Positions 628 through 16,243 of a stretch of 62,562 bases of DNA are shown here, in pieces. The notes beneath the pieces were generated by a model. The model searched no databases. It was not told where the DNA came from and saw nothing but the letters and a program-made list of their open reading frames with translations. Source of the DNA: a virus; UHGV virus genome UHGV-0106067. The stretch is one strand, 5' to 3'. The position numbers and the translations under genes are program-made. How positions within the stretch are numbered: the stretch's first letter is position 1; every line of letters begins with the position of its first letter.

Positions 628-2601
628 TTATGCTGCTACGGCATTCACACCAACAGTAAGACTTTCAATCAGCACAGGGTAAGTTGCCGCATTTCCGGTA
701 ATATCCGTAATTGCCAGCGCGTTGGCCTCAAAGGCTGCATTCGTCCATCTGGTCAGCGTAAACGGTTTTCCTGCTGCATTATCAAGCACCGGCGTGACGT
801 TCAGCGAGCCACCACCCGGGAAGCGGAAAGTCAGCGTGTGCCAGTCGTGATCGAACGGACCATAACTACCAAGCCGCTGTGATGTGGTGTTTGCATGATA
901 CATCACATTGATGTTTGTTTTATCAGTCTGCAGATAGAAGGCCGCAATATAACCCTCCTCTGATTCCGCTCCCGGCCATCCACTACCGCGCCAGTAAATA
1001 CCCGCAGAATATTGATTTGCAGAAGCATTGAGAGATACATCATCGGGGATTTTAAAGCGCAGCGTGATTTCACCGCCGTTATCGAACAGCTCCTTCCCCT
1101 TACCGGCATCAATTGCGTGCGATACTTTCCAGGTCTTTTTCTGTGCAAGACCATTTTCTGGTTTTTCAAGACGAAGGGCTTTTTTACCTGAACCACTGTC
1201 ACTGACCAGCGTGTTTTTGACATCTGTCAGCGTCCAGCCCTGCGAAGCCAGAGCGGCATTTTCCGCATTCACATCATAAGCCAGCACTGACTGTATCTTT
1301 GTCGGGACAACGGCTTCAGGCTGAGTATCGCCACTCTCCTGTGCTGGTTGCGATACGCCTCCGCCTGAAGAAACCGCGGCTTTTGTCACTTTCCCGGAAA
1401 CAAAATCTGCCACTCTGCCCACATGCAGAAGAATGGCTGTTGCCAGACGGTCGGAAATAATTCCGCGACGCGCCCATGAACCAAAGTGGGTTTTACGATC
1501 GGATGTTGTCCAGCTCTTCGCATCCGTTCGTCCACCGGAACCATAATACCCGATAGCCGGAATATCCGGGTCTTCTGACGGTTCATTGGTCCCGACTTTC
1601 TGACCATTGTCATCCATCATAAACGGCACAAAGAAGATATTTTTACCGGCTTTGGTTTTGTATGCGCCATAGACGGCATCGTATTGCGCTGAATACGTCT
1701 CCTTCCAGTAGTACGTCGTGTCACCACAAATCCAGGGCACCAGAGAAGGAGAAGCACCAGCGCACTGACCGGATACTCCCGCCAGGTCAGAACGGTATTT
1801 TTCCACCATGGCATCAAACATGGCGGGCTGACTGGCGTACGCTCCCTGTTTTAAATCAAACTCGCCCTGCATCCAGACAACACAAAGCAGTATGTTTTTG
1901 GGGTTTGCCTTCAGCGCGACCTGAGTGCGTGTCAGCAGGTCTTTATACAACGGCTTATCAACGCCCCATCGTTCAGATTTATCCGACGCTCCTGAACTTT
2001 CACTGAACGTTCCGTCAGCACCGGCTGTAAACGCAGAGCCACCACGACAGCACGGCACTAACAAAATACCCGCATTTTCCGGCATAAAGGGCAACAGCTT
2101 TTTGGCAATATGCAATCCCTGTCCGACACACCCATACTGCTCTGCGCTGGCTTTCGGATGAGAAAAACGGCTCAAATCCTGCACATCATGCAGGCAGTGG
2201 TCCGCCGGAATGATGTCGTTATATGCACAGGCCGCACCACCCGGTGTCACCGTACTGCGACGCGCCAGCTGTTTAATACGCGGGTCCGGACGGTCATATG
2301 TCTCCGGCAGCGGCAGGCCTTCACCATACGCCATGCCGTTTGACTGTCCGGCCAGCGCAATGACAAAGTAATATTCTGGTTCAACAACAACAGTCCGGGT
2401 ACCATCTCCCCCCGGTGAAACTACCGGAGAGGTCATATCCCCTTCAGCGACTATAGCCTGGATAAATTCAGCACCATAACCCGCGTTTGAGATAATCGGA
2501 CTACCATAGGGTTGCCAGCCTTCCTTCAGTTTTTGCGTCAGTTTTCCTGCGAGGTCTGACGGCGATGATGCCCTGACCACATCATAATGTTTAAATGCCA
2601 T
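628..2601 (-). CDS. nanS-p: NanS-p-like sialate O-acetylesterase (DUF1737 N-domain + SGNH-type esterase core)
   Basis: 657 aa; N-terminus MAFKHYDVVRASSPSDLAGKLTQKLKEGWQPYG typical of DUF1737; GQSNG esterase motif; location between Q-side cargo and lysis genes as in Stx phages. Confidence 0.7.
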   Translation of the reverse strand: MAFKHYDVVRASSPSDLAGKLTQKLKEGWQPYGSPIISNAGYGAEFIQAIVAEGDMTSPVVSPGGDGTRTVVVEPEYYFVIALAGQSNGMAYGEGLPLPETYDRPDPRIKQLARRSTVTPGGAACAYNDIIPADHCLHDVQDLSRFSHPKASAEQYGCVGQGLHIAKKLLPFMPENAGILLVPCCRGGSAFTAGADGTFSESSGASDKSERWGVDKPLYKDLLTRTQVALKANPKNILLCVVWMQGEFDLKQGAYASQPAMFDAMVEKYRSDLAGVSGQCAGASPSLVPWICGDTTYYWKETYSAQYDAVYGAYKTKAGKNIFFVPFMMDDNGQKVGTNEPSEDPDIPAIGYYGSGGRTDAKSWTTSDRKTHFGSWARRGIISDRLATAILLHVGRVADFVSGKVTKAAVSSGGGVSQPAQESGDTQPEAVVPTKIQSVLAYDVNAENAALASQGWTLTDVKNTLVSDSGSGKKALRLEKPENGLAQKKTWKVSHAIDAGKGKELFDNGGEITLRFKIPDDVSLNASANQYSAGIYWRGSGWPGAESEEGYIAAFYLQTDKTNINVMYHANTTSQRLGSYGPFDHDWHTLTFRFPGGGSLNVTPVLDNAAGKPFTLTRWTNAAFEANALAITDITGNAATYPVLIESLTVGVNAVAA

Positions 2602-2779: not shown

Positions 2780-2809
2780 GCTCGCGCCTCCCGGCGCGGG
2801 CTTTTTTTG
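2780..2809 (+). terminator. intrinsic terminator (plus-strand orientation)
   Basis: hairpin cgcgcc-tccc-ggcgcg followed by gggcttttttt. Confidence 0.45.
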
Positions 2810-2812
2810 CAT

Positions 2813-2839
2813 GTAAAAAGGCCCCTGCGATGAGGGGCC
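2813..2839 (-). terminator. intrinsic terminator downstream of R-M operon
   Basis: hairpin ggcccct-gcgatg-aggggcc; on minus strand followed by ttttta. Confidence 0.5.
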
Positions 2840-3211
2840 TGAGAGTATTACCTGGTTTCAGTTAACTGCATAGTGCCGGGTGCCTCCCGGTGAGTTCAGC
2901 CCGGTGCCACCGAACCCGCGTCTTTCACATTGCCTGTGACATTAAAAATGCCAGCCCGCACCAGCCGCCCCGCCGCTGAGGGGGATTCACCATGCGTTGC
3001 GATTTTTAACAAATTCACCGCCAGCCAGACAATCATCAACTTGCTGAATTGTGAGGTATTTAAAAATTTCCCCGATTAACTGATACCCTGCTAACCACCT
3101 GTTGTTTTCTTTTTCAGCAACAAAAAAGCCCGCTCATCGGCGGATTCGGCTGCGTGGCAATGTAACCATTCTTATCATGATATGAGGATTTTTACGATTG
3201 TAAAATGTTTT

Positions 3212-4306
3212 TTAACTGACACCAGAATCATCATAACCGCGACTTGTTATAGCTTGCCTGTATGCGTTCATTTTGCGTTCTGCGTACTGGACAACATCTT
3301 TAATGACAAGCTTATGAACAACTGAAATAAGGTCATTTATATAACAAAAGTCAGGTGACTTATTTTTCACTGGCAACCAAATAACATCGTTCTTAATTTT
3401 TCTATTACTAACACTATCCCCCCATGAATATTTATGTGAAATAGACCTATAAATACATGAAATAATGCCCAAATAAGCAAACTTTGTCCTTCCATCCTCA
3501 TTGTTAACATAGAGTCGCAAATTATGACTGTCGTTTGAAAAAAAGTCTCGCTCCTGATAAGTTACAACGAATGTCTTACCACCAATAAAAATACAGTTCC
3601 CTTTTTCCAAGAGTGAGTCATCATAGGCGATATAAGAACTAACAGAGTTATTATCACGGCTAGCACAAAGATAAGGAACATCCCCACTATTTTCTATGAT
3701 GTCTCTAGACAATATGTTTCCTGTATTGCACACTGAGAATAACTCAGTAACAGGAAAGCCTGAAAATTCAATATTTTTAAAATGTTCCAGGATAAGATAA
3801 TCTTTTTCCGTTAGTTGGTAATCACTCAGCCCAGCAGCTATCAGGTATGCTTCCAGCTCTTCTATATGGGCCGCTTCCAGCTCTTCTATATAATTATCCA
3901 TAAAAAACCAGTCAATTTCATTATTTTTCACTGGTAATGAGATGAAATATTCTCCATCTCTGAGTTTGGAACTCGATAACTGTTGACCATAATTAAAACG
4001 CCCCTTTAAAGCTTTATTAATCATACTGGCAACATACAGTCCGCGCTTTGCATTAAAGTCGGACTTACTTGATTTTAATGTAAGAACATGCACCTTCATT
4101 TCTACGCTGGCACAATAAGGATGATAAAAAGCATCTCCAAAAAAATTAACGCTTATAAAATTTTCATAATGTCTTGCATCATCCATAAACTCGGTATCAA
4201 ACTCTCCGATGATACCGTTTTGATCGCTCTTTGCTGAAACACGTTTGATTTTGCCTGGTTTTAATCTTCCTGAGGAGATAAGCGAGCCTGTGCTCACATA
4301 GAACAA
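3212..4306 (-). CDS. restriction-modification specificity (S) subunit, two target-recognition domains
   Basis: 364 aa; two internal repeats each ending in an LPVKN...D-type segment (FISLPVKNNEIDWFF and VIWLPVKNKSPDFCYINDL) as in HsdS/BcgIB-type subunits; AT-rich; directly downstream of methyltransferase-nuclease gene. Confidence 0.5.
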   Translation of the reverse strand: MFYVSTGSLISSGRLKPGKIKRVSAKSDQNGIIGEFDTEFMDDARHYENFISVNFFGDAFYHPYCASVEMKVHVLTLKSSKSDFNAKRGLYVASMINKALKGRFNYGQQLSSSKLRDGEYFISLPVKNNEIDWFFMDNYIEELEAAHIEELEAYLIAAGLSDYQLTEKDYLILEHFKNIEFSGFPVTELFSVCNTGNILSRDIIENSGDVPYLCASRDNNSVSSYIAYDDSLLEKGNCIFIGGKTFVVTYQERDFFSNDSHNLRLYVNNEDGRTKFAYLGIISCIYRSISHKYSWGDSVSNRKIKNDVIWLPVKNKSPDFCYINDLISVVHKLVIKDVVQYAERKMNAYRQAITSRGYDDSGVS

Positions 4307-4365: not shown

Positions 4366-6327
4366 TTACTTTCCCGCAAAATTGTTTTCACCTTGTTTTT
4401 TCAGTAATTGCGAGACCTCCCATGCAAGGTAATCACCTACCGTCTTTTTGAAATCCTCCAGCGTTGGCCTAGCATCTACTGGCCTGGTCTGATTCCAGTC
4501 CTCACCACTATCAGGATCGATTGTTCCCTCAAAATATTCATCCTCCGTAAAGATATTAAGGCAACCTTTCCCGAAGTGAACCAGATCCACAACCTCCTGA
4601 TAACGCTCTTTTGCACGATCGGCATCAACAAGATTGTTTCTTGCCTTTTTGCGATTAGAGCGAGCGTAGCCGTCATTGGAAAAGTCGATAAACTTAACAG
4701 CCTGTTTCGCGTTATGCGGAATTTTTACCTGAAAAACGTAAATGTACGTCTGAACGCTTGATTTACCAATAAACAGATCCGCAGGCATTTTGATGCTTGC
4801 CAGCAAGGTATTTTCCTTGAGTATTTTTTTGTTGTACTCCGTAGCCTTTCCTGTGCCAGCTGAACTCTGGATAATCACTGCAGCATAGCCTTTATCCATC
4901 ATCGACAGCGCCTTCTGCACGAAAATCATGCCGTTACCTTTAGCTGAATACGGAGGATTGAGAATAAATGCGTCCGCAGGGAATTTTTCTCCTGTTTTCC
5001 CAAATCCATACTTGCCGTCAAAATCGGCCAGCGAGTCTTTATTGAGGATATTCGAGCTACCATCCCCCATCAAAATCATATTCAGGATGGCCAGCATATA
5101 AATACTGGATAACACCTCAAGGCCAAGAAGCTGTTCAGCCTTGATTTGCGCTTCCTTAAGTTGTAGTTCGTTCGGTGAGTGAATATTTTCTCTGGCGTCA
5201 ATGAGCATTTCATTCATTGCAGCCACAAGCAATCCCGCAGAACCTGTAGCAAAATCCCACACATAGGAATCTTTGTTTACTCTGGCGAGTCGTGCCAGCA
5301 ATGTGGCAACATAAGGTGGTGTCAGAACGACGTCATTGAGCTTGTCCTGCGTAAATCCAAGCCAGCGATACATCTCATTAAACAGTTTGCCCGTAAAATC
5401 GGTGGTCAGTCCAATTTTGTAATACTCCCCAAGATCATCAACAACTTTAACAAACACGCGCTTTAACTGGCTTTCACCGTTGACTGGTTTGTTAATGTTT
5501 TCAGTCCACAGCGTATTTTGCAACGAGCGCAAAATCATTTCTCTTTTTGTTTCAGGAACAGCTTTCAGCCTTAAAAAGTTCCTTATTTTCCTGAAAATAA
5601 TATCACCATCACGCAAGTCCTCCTCCGTTGAAGAGGTCAGTTCTTTTTTATCCAGCGGTGCTAACTTTCCCGGAATCCCCAACGTTGCAATAACGGTAGC
5701 CACAACAAGGTAAACACGATCGCTTTCACCAAGCCCCTTTTCATTCTGGTAAATATCGTTATTCAGACGGGAAAGTCGCGTGTCTATCTCTTCCTCTTTG
5801 CTGGCCTTGATTTTTTCCAGTTCTTCGGGAGGAAGATTAAGCAGCTTTATCTTGTTGAGAAATCCATCAACATTTTTGTCAGCAAGGAACGATAAGTCGG
5901 TGAATTCACCAACCTTCTGTCCGGCTCCTAAATTATTCTTTGATACGTACCACACGCCGATTTCATGATGCAGTTCGCCTGTACCATCATCGCGCCAGCC
6001 GGTCATACCAATAGCAATAATATCAGGGTAATTGGTGAACTGAAGAAGTGCGTTGGCATAATGGACTGCGCCATTCACCGCGTATCCATTAATATTTTTA
6101 AAATTCCATTCTTTTCTGGCATCTTTGTTCTCAATAATACCGTTGCTGCCAAGTCTGATAAGCCTGTCCTTGTAGCCTTTATACTCGATGAGAACGGGAT
6201 ACTGCTTGCCGTATTTGTCCTTAACAAGGAGTTTTACGTCGGGACGATTACCGCCTGCGCCGCCATTTTTCGAAAAATAAGCGTCCAGTGCGTTATCGAT
6301 CTCTCCGTTAAGTGATGCATTCTGCAA
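4366..6327 (-). CDS. fused PD-ExK endonuclease / gamma-class N6-adenine methyltransferase (Type IIB BcgI-A-like R-M subunit)
   Basis: 653 aa; N-terminal PD...(x17)...EYK motif (RPDVKLLVKDKYGKQYPVLIEYK); motif I VWDFATGSAGLL; motif IV FILNPPYSAKG; apparent TTG start. Confidence 0.6.
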   Translation of the reverse strand: MQNASLNGEIDNALDAYFSKNGGAGGNRPDVKLLVKDKYGKQYPVLIEYKGYKDRLIRLGSNGIIENKDARKEWNFKNINGYAVNGAVHYANALLQFTNYPDIIAIGMTGWRDDGTGELHHEIGVWYVSKNNLGAGQKVGEFTDLSFLADKNVDGFLNKIKLLNLPPEELEKIKASKEEEIDTRLSRLNNDIYQNEKGLGESDRVYLVVATVIATLGIPGKLAPLDKKELTSSTEEDLRDGDIIFRKIRNFLRLKAVPETKREMILRSLQNTLWTENINKPVNGESQLKRVFVKVVDDLGEYYKIGLTTDFTGKLFNEMYRWLGFTQDKLNDVVLTPPYVATLLARLARVNKDSYVWDFATGSAGLLVAAMNEMLIDARENIHSPNELQLKEAQIKAEQLLGLEVLSSIYMLAILNMILMGDGSSNILNKDSLADFDGKYGFGKTGEKFPADAFILNPPYSAKGNGMIFVQKALSMMDKGYAAVIIQSSAGTGKATEYNKKILKENTLLASIKMPADLFIGKSSVQTYIYVFQVKIPHNAKQAVKFIDFSNDGYARSNRKKARNNLVDADRAKERYQEVVDLVHFGKGCLNIFTEDEYFEGTIDPDSGEDWNQTRPVDARPTLEDFKKTVGDYLAWEVSQLLKKQGENNFAGK

Positions 6328-6416: not shown

Positions 6417-6451
6417 TGCTGGTCGCTGGTCGCTGGTCGCTGGTCGCTGGT
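6417..6451. repeat. heptanucleotide tandem repeat (YGCTGGT x5) upstream of R-M gene
   Basis: tgctggt cgctggt cgctggt cgctggt cgctggt, about 90 bp upstream of the R-M start. Confidence 0.9.
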
Positions 6452-6635
6452 CTGGCAGCATAAAATCATCCTTTTATGAAAATCAACGATTTTTGAGCAC
6501 TCGCACACAAAAAATTACCGCATTGGTTGCAACGACAACCTGCATTTTGCGGAGCATATGACAAATAAAGTACGGGTGCGTTGAGGATGCCAGACACATC
6601 AGAGGTGGCGGGAGATTACTCCCCTGCCTGGTCTC

Positions 6636-6791
6636 TTACTTCTCAGATTCGTAGTCTACGAAGACAGCGACCTCCGTCTGGCCGGTTCGGATTCGTACCT
6701 CGCAGAAGTCTTTCCTCGTTACCAGTGCTATCACTACGACGGTAATACAGATGACGATCAGGGCGATTAACATCGCCTTTTGCTGCTTCAT
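6636..6791 (-). CDS. hok: Hok/Gef-family type I toxin (HokC/HokD-like)
   Basis: 51-aa ORF MKQQKAMLIALIVICITVVVIALVTRKDLCEVRIRTGQTEVAVFVDYESEK; SD aaggaga upstream; absent from ORF track (<60 aa). Confidence 0.75.
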   Translation of the reverse strand: MKQQKAMLIALIVICITVVVIALVTRKDFCEVRIRTGQTEVAVFVDYESEK

Positions 6792-6966
6792 AGCCTACTT
6801 CTCCTTGCCTTTCGGCACGTAAGAGGCTAACCTAAGTTTGTAAGTCATAGATTTGGCCTCAGATTAATGTTAAGCGTCCTGCAAGACGCGTAATGTTAAC
6901 TGGGGCTTTTCTCTGTCTGCCTTACGGCTGCATGCCCGAGGCAGACAGCCTCAAGCACCCGCAGCT

Positions 6967-6994
6967 ATTCTACAGTAAAAACTCGCGCTTTCAA
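6967..6994 (-). promoter_or_regulatory. candidate late promoter (pR-prime-like) immediately downstream of Q
   Basis: minus-strand TTGAAA-16 nt-TAGAAT; -35 overlaps Q stop codon; inverted repeat ctgtctgcc/ggcagacag just downstream could be part of a qut-like element. Confidence 0.45.
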
Positions 6995-7416
6995 TTTCCC
7001 GCACGTCCGGCAAACTGACTGGCCTGTGATCCTGATGGTTCACGCTCAACGTACCTGTCCATTTCCAGCTTTACTCCCTGCATGATCAACATCCCCTCAA
7101 TAACACCTTCTGCTTTTTGCAGTACCCGCCCGGCCCAGCAATCAGAGCGCCCATGCTTACGGCCCAGTGACATAAGCGTCATCCCGAACACATAATAATC
7201 ATACAGAAAATCATGCAAATCGCTGTTGTTGACGTTCAGTTGCGCCATGCAATTGCTGATAATCAGCGCATCGTCATCGGTACACTGAGGCCGTGATTTA
7301 ACCTTTGACGGGATCAGCCCCTTAAATCCGGCGGCAATGGGCGACCAGCTCACATCCTCATGATTATTGGCCACCCATGCGCCCCAGCGTTCAAGCACCT
7401 GCTGAATATCACGCAT
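6991..7416 (-). CDS. Q: late antiterminator Q (933W/phage-21 type)
   Basis: [45 protein letters not shown] matches recalled Q of Stx phages; position after NinH; start placed at internal Met of 6991..7521 ORF. Confidence 0.65.
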
Positions 7417-8626: not shown

Positions 8627-9597
8627 CAGGCAGCCTCCGCTTTGAATTTGCGCGTCAACACATGTTCACGGGCTTCACACCCCTGAATGAGCATGTCGTT
8701 AAAATCCGGCAAGTCAGGCCAGCGAATGCTGACCTTCTCAACGTCATTACGACTCATGAGATTCTTATGCCCACATTTAAAGGCAGCCGCCAGACCTGCG
8801 CCGTGCTCATCATTGTCTGCAAAGATAATCAGGTGATTAACGCCTGGTGGCGCAATAAACTTCTCCATAAAACCGGAGTTCATTGTTGACCACACATTGC
8901 AGCGGAAGATTTGACGGCATGAAAGCGCAGTTTCGATACCCTCGGCTATCCCCAGAGTGGACGACACCGGATACAGGCGTATTGCCACCGATTTGGCATG
9001 CTGCAAACCAGGCAACTCCTGTAGCGCAGTCATTTTTTTAGCCGCCTCTACATTCGCCTTGCGATCACCATCCAGCAACGTACGATGCAGATAGCAAAGA
9101 GAACCTTTGTCATCTGTTGCAATGGCGTAAATTGCCTGATATTCGCGCCCGCTGGCGATCTGACGGTCACAGAAACGCACGGATTCGGTCGGTAACTGGA
9201 GTATTCCCCTCCCCTGCAGGTACGCCTCACCTGTTGTGCCCCGCAGACACGGGAGTCCGGCAAACTTATCCATGACCCGCTCCCGTTCTCTGGCAATATC
9301 CGTTACAGTGCGTCTGGCATGCCCTCTCTTCCAGGTATTACCAACCAGTCGATCGACTTCATCGCACAGATCAACCCAGGGCTTACCCGTGGCAAGTTGC
9401 AACAACTTCATCCCGTCCCCGTGACCACAGACACAAATCCATGAACCGGAACCATCCTTATCATCACAGCGAAATTTACCTCTGGCACCACATATCGGGC
9501 AGGGGCCGCTATAATGTTTCAAGCCAGTAACAGGAGGCATGCCGTAATATTCAAAAATTCGCCCCCAATGCCCGGCCGCTGCCTTCTTAGTCTGCAT
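8626..9597 (-). CDS. DNA primase (zinc-binding + Toprim domain)
   Basis: CPICG...CVCGHGDG zinc motif; C-terminal Toprim-like segment IIFADNDEHGAGL. Confidence 0.65.
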   Translation of the reverse strand: MQTKKAAAGHWGRIFEYYGMPPVTGLKHYSGPCPICGARGKFRCDDKDGSGSWICVCGHGDGMKLLQLATGKPWVDLCDEVDRLVGNTWKRGHARRTVTDIARERERVMDKFAGLPCLRGTTGEAYLQGRGILQLPTESVRFCDRQIASGREYQAIYAIATDDKGSLCYLHRTLLDGDRKANVEAAKKMTALQELPGLQHAKSVAIRLYPVSSTLGIAEGIETALSCRQIFRCNVWSTMNSGFMEKFIAPPGVNHLIIFADNDEHGAGLAAAFKCGHKNLMSRNDVEKVSIRWPDLPDFNDMLIQGCEAREHVLTRKFKAEAA

Positions 9598-15592: not shown

Positions 15593-16243
15593 TACATAAA
15601 TCAGTCGTACGGCGCGACTTAACCCGCCGCAAAATGCTCTTTAACAATCTGGAGCTTTACAGCGTCAATGACCTGTTTAGACCCCTACACGTAAACGTGC
15701 TGTATCATCGGGTGCGATCCGGTCGATGAGAGAGTATCCCCGCGCGAGAGCGAGAACGGCGTGAGAACGGGCAACACTGGCAGGAAGTTGGCGCTGACCA
15801 ATACAGGGAATGTTTTGGGGTGTGGTGAAGGGTTCATGGACGGGAATATGTCGCACGTAAAGCGGCGAGGCCCGAGGGACTATTGCTGAAGATAAGTAGG
15901 CCGAATCGGGTCGAAATGGGTCTCCCACCTGCCACATCGCCAAAGCATTTCCGAGAAAGGACGGTATTGACTGCGTGTGATGTCGGGGCTATATTTGGCG
16001 AACACCTCATAAAACGGGTGTCGGGATTCTCACCCCGCTGACAATCGAGGCGATACAGACGCGCCAGCGTCTTTTTTTGTATCGACATACACGCACATCT
16101 TATCAATGGTGGGCTGTATGGGGCCGACTTCGGTCGGGCTGGTTCCCTTGATTGCCAGTTGTGAGAACCCTGTACAGTCCACCGCCAGCGAGCTTCTCAC
16201 CTCCTGCGGTGGTTATTAATCACCAATCAAGGAGGCTGCCATT

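Follow-up and report, generated by a model that had tools for sequence, protein, structure and literature searches.

We analysed a viral genome of 62,562 nucleotides (UHGV-0106067; the whole stretch is referred to here as the window). Very probably, it carries a complete hokW-type hok/sok type I toxin-antitoxin locus, and this locus leads an accessory cassette of ~3.8 kb that lies between the core of the antiterminator gene Q and Q's cognate late promoter. In the cassette (~7038-3222), hok/sok is followed by a weak terminator and a tract of 7-bp repeats, and then by the genes for a BcgI-like restriction-modification enzyme and its specificity subunit (Table 1). Its first part is closely related to a known locus: 408 nt of the window (6973-6566) share 91% DNA identity with the annotated hokW/mokW/sokW of 933W. 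The hok/sok locus itself is nothing new in kind. In the window, however placed, it is physically joined to restriction-modification genes, so that two kinds of module known for addiction or defence stand in one accessory cassette.

Table 1. Features of the region between Q and the displaced late promoter, listed from Q onwards (window coordinates).
Feature	Position	Strand	Description
Antiterminator Q gene	6991-7416	-	141 aa; Pfam PF06530, E 5e-48
P_hok, sigma-70 promoter	6967-6994	-	TTGAAA (6994-6989), 16-nt spacer, TAGAAT (6972-6967)
hok mRNA leader	6786-6960	-	5' tac GGGUGCUUGAGG, first hairpin, Sok target, mok/hok translation-initiation region
tac element GGGUGCUUGAGG	6949-6960	-	5' end of hok mRNA
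First hairpin of hok leader	6902-6959	-	Inverted repeat and fold
Sok antisense RNA, ~70 nt (predicted)	6841-6910	+	~14-nt single-stranded 5' tail, long hairpin, U tail
P_sok	6805-6833	+	TTGCCT (6805-6810), 17-nt spacer, TAACCT (6828-6833)
mok reading frame	6795-6848	-	ATG at 6848; 17 codons, then TAG (6797-6795)
hok toxin ORF	6636-6791	-	51 aa, intact; Pfam PF01848 HOK_GEF
fbi element CCUCAACGCACCC	6574-6586	-	Pairs with hok mRNA 5' end
Terminator-like hairpin	6509-6552	-	CCGCA...TGCGG, then UAAUUUUUU; between hok and restriction-modification genes
Two ATGs and 7-bp tandem repeat CCAGCGA	6418-6469	-	ATGs at 6469 and 6461; TRF unit GCTGGTC on + strand, 5.0 copies
Type IIG/IIB BcgI-like restriction enzyme-methyltransferase	4366-6327	-	PADLOC REase_MTase_IIG, E 6e-228, from model position 36
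Specificity subunit	3212-4306	-	Pfam Methylase_S, E 1e-19; PADLOC Specificity_II, E 9e-21
Displaced late-promoter block	3122-3221	-	pR' TTTACA-16-TATCAT (3204-3177), qut-like GGTTACATTGCCAC (3167-3154), hairpin and T run (3144-3122)

A hokW-type toxin-antitoxin locus

The initial annotation reported an inverted repeat and a 51-aa Hok/Gef-type reading frame with a good SD behind the end of Q, and both are present. The arms of the repeat (6902-6922 and 6939-6959, 21 nt each) are 76% complementary and correspond to the first hairpin in the RNA fold. The SD of the reading frame, AAGGAG, is found at 6806-6801. Hok-family HMM support, on which that annotation had staked the toxin assignment, was found: the frame matches PF01848 HOK_GEF with an E value of 7.1e-22 and 77 bits (cut-off 22 bits), and the entire model is covered. 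A match to an NCBIfam Hok subfamily (E 7.5e-14) reaches 51.3 bits, under its 73-bit cut-off. Of the 51 residues of the window protein, 47 agree with HokW. By analogy with the HokW/SokW family, window Hok is expected to be toxic and window Sok to function as its antitoxin.

The hok leader matches Rfam family RF01794 with 118.4 bits (gathering score 59, E 4e-28), covering model positions 1-157 of 157. This family is named 'sok' in Rfam, and the match here lies on the hok-sense strand. It begins exactly at the first base of GGGUGCUUGAGG, 7 nt past the -10. By homology, the hok transcript probably starts at this position, G6960, with the hok ATG following 169 nt later. Rfam also placed a Caenorhabditis snoRNA, ceN48, over the hok leader (E 0.014; 26 bits, where the gathering score is 70), which we dismissed as a chance match.

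Closure of the transcript by pairing of tac with fbi is typical of hok mRNAs. The MFE and centroid folds of positions 6960-6508 (z -4.2) agree in pairing nucleotides 1-12 of the hok mRNA with fbi (6586-6574). Both elements are invariant across six loci and thus give no covariation signal. Among the scanned loci, fbi is located at +374 to +377.

The window mok frame is short. Its TAG stands 3 nt ahead of the hok ATG, and the same stop is found in every member of the window's 100%-Q lineage. The corresponding position is CAG in 933W and in loci L004, L021-L023 and L027-L029, where mok has 70 codons and runs in frame into hok. The TAG may weaken or alter the coupled translation of hok. From what is established about translational coupling, ribosomes that stop so close to the hok ATG should still open the hok start site of the window and reinitiate there.

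An antisense Sok-like RNA had been predicted on the plus strand around 6790-6870, together with the suggestion that this strand be searched for a Sok promoter and terminator. Such a search revealed a candidate promoter and a hairpin with a U tail. The predicted strand was correct, and the predicted position was off by about 40-50 nt, as the RNA probably spans ~6841-6910. The two hexamers of P_sok recur unchanged ahead of the annotated 933W sokW. A simple promoter scan missed P_sok, since its TAACCT fits only three of six consensus positions. The ends of the window RNA are placed according to the sokW annotation (AF125520), and an RNA with these ends is predicted to fold at -28.4 kcal/mol (z -4.8) into the same shape as SokW. 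A -10 identical to that of P_sok was mutated in the 'pro-less' construct (primer YO-421), and this mutation abolished antitoxin activity (Takada et al. 2021, PMC8621323).

The closest known relative is the hokW/mokW/sokW locus of 933W/Sp5 (AF125520; PMC8621323), which has the same -10, discriminator, 5' end, Sok hexamers, Sok hairpin and fbi, and which is likewise carried by a 933W-like short-tailed lambdoid phage. The two loci differ in placement. The hokW of 933W is found near the right genome end, on the strand opposite the late genes, and has the -35 TTGCGG. The window hok, in contrast, comes straight after Q, is co-directional with early-right and late transcription and has a -35 (TTGAAA) that overlaps the Q stop. 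Unlike its 933W counterpart, it is also joined to a restriction-modification cassette and is preceded by a mok of 17 rather than 70 codons. We found no second hok/sok copy at the 933W position: the window contains one RF01794 match and one exact GGGTGCTTGAGG, and the sequences that flank hokW in 933W are present without hok. The window documents another site occupied by hokW-type loci among 933W-like phages.

More distantly, the locus resembles hok/sok (parB) of plasmid R1, with its stable folded toxin mRNA, tac-fbi closure, mok leader frame, short unstable Sok and membrane toxin of ~50 aa. The established R1 mechanism is summarised in PMC8621323, according to which R1 Hok is only about 44% identical to HokW-type proteins. 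Unlike R1 hok/sok, the window copy is borne by a phage and not by a plasmid, so classical post-segregational killing is not the obvious role for it.

A putatively phase-variable restriction-modification cassette

The terminator-like hairpin behind hok is weak when taken alone (-11.2 kcal/mol, z -0.2). Because of this weakness, transcripts from P_hok may continue into the restriction-modification genes. At the corresponding site, L029 carries a hairpin with a different sequence and then a T run; L004 retains the outer stem. A simple scan of the minus strand detected no separate promoter between the hok hairpin and the restriction-modification ATGs. The TTGATT...GGATGAT sequence conserved there looks more like a ribosome-binding region than a promoter.

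The two genes that follow encode a fused nuclease-methyltransferase and a separate specificity subunit, the arrangement of BcgI-like systems. The enzyme has Pfam matches to N6_Mtase and, weakly, to VRR_NUC. Its frame is open up to 6465 and contains no in-frame ATG. Both of the ATGs that precede the repeat are out of frame with the enzyme in the window, which is thus in an OFF configuration.

We compared the repeat in related loci that span the whole array (L002, L004, L005, L014-L018, L022, L025 and L029), among which the copy number of CCAGCGA ranges from 3 to 82; the repeat is a perfect one. Among loci with the window's flank, the copy number modulo 3 sets whether the first ATG, the second ATG or neither is in frame. 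With 4 full units, the window is OFF, as is PhiR12_3 with 82; loci with 8, 15, 18, 33 and 66 units are ON. Judged by its sequence, the cassette looks like a prophage-borne phase-variable restriction-modification system.

Many IMG/VR contigs (L006-L013, L020, L021, L024 and L026-L028) end ~0.3-1.1 kb beyond the Q start. Where a contig extends as far as the 7-bp repeat (L007-L009, L011-L013 and L028), its end falls inside the repeat, which is consistent with short-read assembly breaks there.

A locus in strain E7-1N7 (L004, in which hok is annotated as hokD) has hok, a weak terminator, an ATG, the CCAGCGA repeat, the IIG enzyme and the S subunit in the same order as the window. Unlike in the window, two opposite-strand genes separate hok from Q, and hok has its own promoter (TTGGCA-17-TAAAAT). 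This locus shows that hok and the restriction-modification genes can co-occur without an adjacent Q.

Distribution and conservation of the cassette

We identified the hok-spacer-repeat junction in 30 of 5,426 complete Escherichia coli genomes. It stands beside this type of Q in 29 of them and elsewhere in one. Hok-related DNA in general is present in more than 4,400 of the same 5,426 genomes. This context of hok/sok is uncommon, and the cassette behaves as a unit, because hok, spacer and repeat recur together in the 30 genomes. Three lineages of Q (100%, about 89% and about 74% protein identity) preserve the junction from the Q stop across TTGAAA-16-TAGAAT and into the hok leader, so the arrangement has existed for long enough to diverge. 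Nothing relevant to the Q-hok arrangement, to the 7-bp repeat system (in a quick search) or to PhiR12_3 was found in the literature searched.

Several relatives have lost an intact hok. In L017 and L018 the gene is interrupted by a nonsense codon at position 4, and in L005, L019 and L025 by a +1 T frameshift; these inactivations are independent. These lesions, together with the mok TAG throughout the window's lineage, raise the possibility that toxin function is decaying and that the locus is kept mainly as a promoter and leader for the restriction-modification genes in lysogens, with Hok poorly made or absent. The weak hairpin and the lack of another scanned minus-strand promoter between hok and the restriction-modification starts would fit this explanation. 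So would dN/dS values of about 0.3-1.6 between the window hok allele and its relatives, but these come from only 8-14 differences per comparison, which are too few to interpret, and RNA structure places a further constraint on the coding region. Against decay, the window hok, its SD, tac, fbi, the Sok promoter and the Sok hairpin are all intact and nearly invariant, and the mok stop would still permit ribosomes to unfold the hok start and reinitiate there. We consider decay unlikely, if still the most plausible of the alternatives, and it is compatible with the assignment of the locus to the hok/sok family.

The promoter at the end of Q belongs to hok

The window Q is 70% identical to the Q of 933W and is related to Q21 (PDB 6P18, E 4e-8). 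DNA similarity to the 933W gene stops at 'gagcgtgaa' (7047-7039), and the final ~18 codons of the window Q (7038-6994) are unrelated to the end of Q933. The cassette junction (7038-6991) thus supplies Q with a new C-terminal tail of 18 residues. A third Q lineage (L026-L029) has a different C-terminal tail again.

A promoter of the form TTGAAA-16-TAGAAT had been described over the Q stop codon, and it is indeed found there on the minus strand, with its -35 overlapping the TGA (6993-6991). Its hexamers match the consensus at 10 of 12 positions in our promoter scan. The scan detected three promoter-like sites in 1.1 kb against an expectation of 1.1 +/- 1.1 from shuffled sequences. By itself, the hexamer match is within chance, and its weight comes from homology and conservation.

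Two readings of this promoter had been offered by the initial annotation: a late promoter whose transcript leader a hok/sok module has co-opted, or a promoter of hok, with the true pR'/qut at some other place. Our analysis favours the second. The late-promoter label was not borne out, as the homologue of the 933W pR'-qut block is found 3.8 kb beyond Q, and the -10 and leader at the end of Q are common to hok copies that are distant from Q.

Alignment of six loci delimits a conserved hok block, from the -10 (GTAGAAT or GTAAAAT) to a point shortly past fbi. The window and the hokW of 933W have in common the sequence GTAGAAT-(a/t)gctgc-GGGTGCTTGAGG, which spans the -10, the discriminator and the 5' end of the transcript. 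The 933W version reads TAGAAT tgctgc and stands in a context without Q. The -35 varies with context, from TTGCGG in 933W and TTGGCA in L004 to TTGAAA beside Q. Because the conserved block starts at the -10 while the sequence upstream differs in each context, the promoter at 6994-6967 is, on this comparative evidence, hok's own.

A probable late promoter displaced by 3.8 kb

The annotated pR' of 933W overlaps the end of Q, has its -35 (TTTACG) 43 nt past 'gagcgtgaa' and leads into a putative qut, with a hairpin behind it. A BLAST comparison of the region downstream of Q in 933W with the window gave one strong match, at 3219-3120 on the minus strand (88% over 100 nt, E 2e-31). Similarity to the Q933 region stops at 7039 in the window and resumes at ~3221, and the same two points are ~28 nt apart in 933W. 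Therefore, ~3.8 kb lies between the Q core and pR' in the window, and this DNA also encodes the last 18 residues of Q.

We identified the 14-nt qut-like motif GGTTACATTGCCAC directly behind Q in about 30 933W-type loci from IMG/VR. In two others, PhiR12_3 (L002) and the Stx2b prophage L005, it comes behind the restriction-modification genes. Its sole occurrence in the window is at 3154-3167. A requirement for a -10-like sigma-dependent pause element is known from the Q proteins of lambda, 82 and 21, and may hold for the window Q as well. Downstream of the promoter at 3204 there is a TACATT, located within the qut-like motif. By direct reading, the hok leader shows neither similarity to the qut block nor, between +1 and +50, a pause element of the -10-like form TANNNT.

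P_hok was considered as a candidate for pR' and was rejected when BLAST put the 933W pR'-qut block at 3219-3120. For P_hok to be, or to double as, a Q-dependent late promoter, Q would have to load on polymerase that starts at 6960, and the hok mRNA would have to be a terminated leader that Q reads through, like lambda 6S or StxS. The location would suit this proposal, as the -35 of P_hok lies over the Q stop, 44 nt past the conserved 'gagcgtgaa' compared with 43 nt for the -35 of the 933W pR'. A terminator-like hairpin follows hok, and the junction between Q and the hok leader has been kept in all three Q lineages. P_hok thus has the expected position at the 3' end of Q, but position alone does not define the pR' family, and P_hok resembles the 933W pR' in position only, with a different sequence and no such qut-like element. 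The 933W block of pR', qut and hairpin has an intact homologue at 3204-3125, and L002 and L005 likewise have one past the cassette. Together with the features missing from the hok leader and the identity of its -10 and 5' sequence with those of hok copies far from any Q, this makes a late-promoter function of P_hok very improbable. By homology, Q is instead expected to act on the promoter at 3204. P_hok could conceivably have a secondary role in Q-linked expression, because its position approximates that of pR' and the adjacency is conserved down to ~74% Q identity.

That the ORF and the promoter are chance features of an intergenic region has a negligible probability: promoter-like hexamer pairs are only ~3 times commoner here than in shuffles of the region, but the Pfam match (E 7e-22), the Rfam match (118 bits), the 91% identity to a validated locus and the conservation in dozens of loci all argue against it.

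The annotation of the region can be corrected on this basis. The strong promoter at the end of Q is best regarded as hok's and not as the late promoter, and models of late-gene control in such phages should look 3.8 kb downstream.

The late region behind the cassette

The pR'-qut-tR' region of 933W/Sp5 is the source of the StxS sRNA and has a constitutive promoter that overlaps the end of Q (PMC7547250). Its true homologue in the window is the block at 3204-3125, which is separated from Q by 3.8 kb. BLAST gave no match in the window to the 933W tR' region. The window has no tRNA genes downstream of Q of the kind found in 933W, and no stx-like ORF was detected among the window ORFs over 110 aa. 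The published Sakai pR' start (1,266,203 on NC_002695.2) would fall inside Q. If the published coordinates were all shifted by 142 nt, the Sakai start would coincide with the annotated promoter and the 3' end with the second of the annotated terminators, ~258 nt away.

A stretch immediately ahead of the displaced pR' (3221-3185, minus strand), which overlaps the stop of the specificity gene, looks like what is left of the end of a Q933-type gene, with its final ~10 codons and stop. The late leader contains an Rfam STnc100 sRNA (149 bits) at 2809-3025 on the minus strand, ~100 nt past the hairpin of the displaced pR', with a strong terminator at 2840-2819. A 657-aa protein (628-2601, minus strand) with DUF1737, sialate O-acetylesterase (SASA) and DUF6645 domains corresponds to the NanS-p/YjhS-like gene that comes after stx in 933W. 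The window has this gene after the late leader, without stx genes or tRNAs between.

The Stx2b prophage L005 (E. coli 04-00955, NZ_CP035498.1 1789796-1800479) encodes, in this order, Q, a frameshifted hok, an ON restriction-modification enzyme, an S subunit and a hypothetical gene. Its pR'-type motif (9101-9114) comes after the cassette, ~350 bp upstream of the tRNA-stx2b block, and the late promoter for the toxin genes would therefore be ~4 kb from Q.

Proposed mechanism

On the model of related loci, P_hok would fire constitutively from about G6960. The full-length hok mRNA would be closed by the pairing of tac with fbi that is predicted in silico, and in this form would be stable, untranslatable and inaccessible to Sok. 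Slow trimming of the 3' end would then open the mRNA. Sok, transcribed from P_sok on the plus strand, would pair with the mok translation-initiation region and thereby lead to cleavage by RNase III. Once Sok is lost, mok and then hok would be translated, and Hok would depolarise the inner membrane; the loss of Sok and the synthesis of Hok have been seen for HokW/SokW only. Q-dependent late transcription would start from the displaced pR' (3204-3177) and not from P_hok.

HokW is toxic and is neutralised by SokW (PMC8621323). When the prophage is induced, SokW is lost, HokW is synthesised and twice as much phage is released; the loss of SokW in Sp5 is rapid and RecA-dependent (PMC8621323). Deletion of hok/sok from Sp5 has a phenotype in lysis or plating. 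This system is the nearest experimental precedent, and it suggests that the window locus may help lysis after induction. Other possible roles are stabilisation of the restriction-modification cassette or of the prophage, and exclusion of other phages.

The placement behind Q could itself be functional. After induction, antiterminated readthrough of Q from pR would silence the head-on Sok promoter by interference and so link induction to the release of Hok, and readthrough from P_hok would be the sole source of the phase-variable restriction-modification transcripts in lysogens. We regard this proposal as doubtful. If true, the toxin leader and the defence genes would form one regulatory unit.

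Elsewhere in the window, Rfam matches to isrK (61 bits) and C4 antisense RNA (77 bits) adjoin at 16002-16189 on the plus strand. The c4-ant immunity region of P1/P7 type and the isrK/anti-Q loci of Stx phages are arranged in this way.
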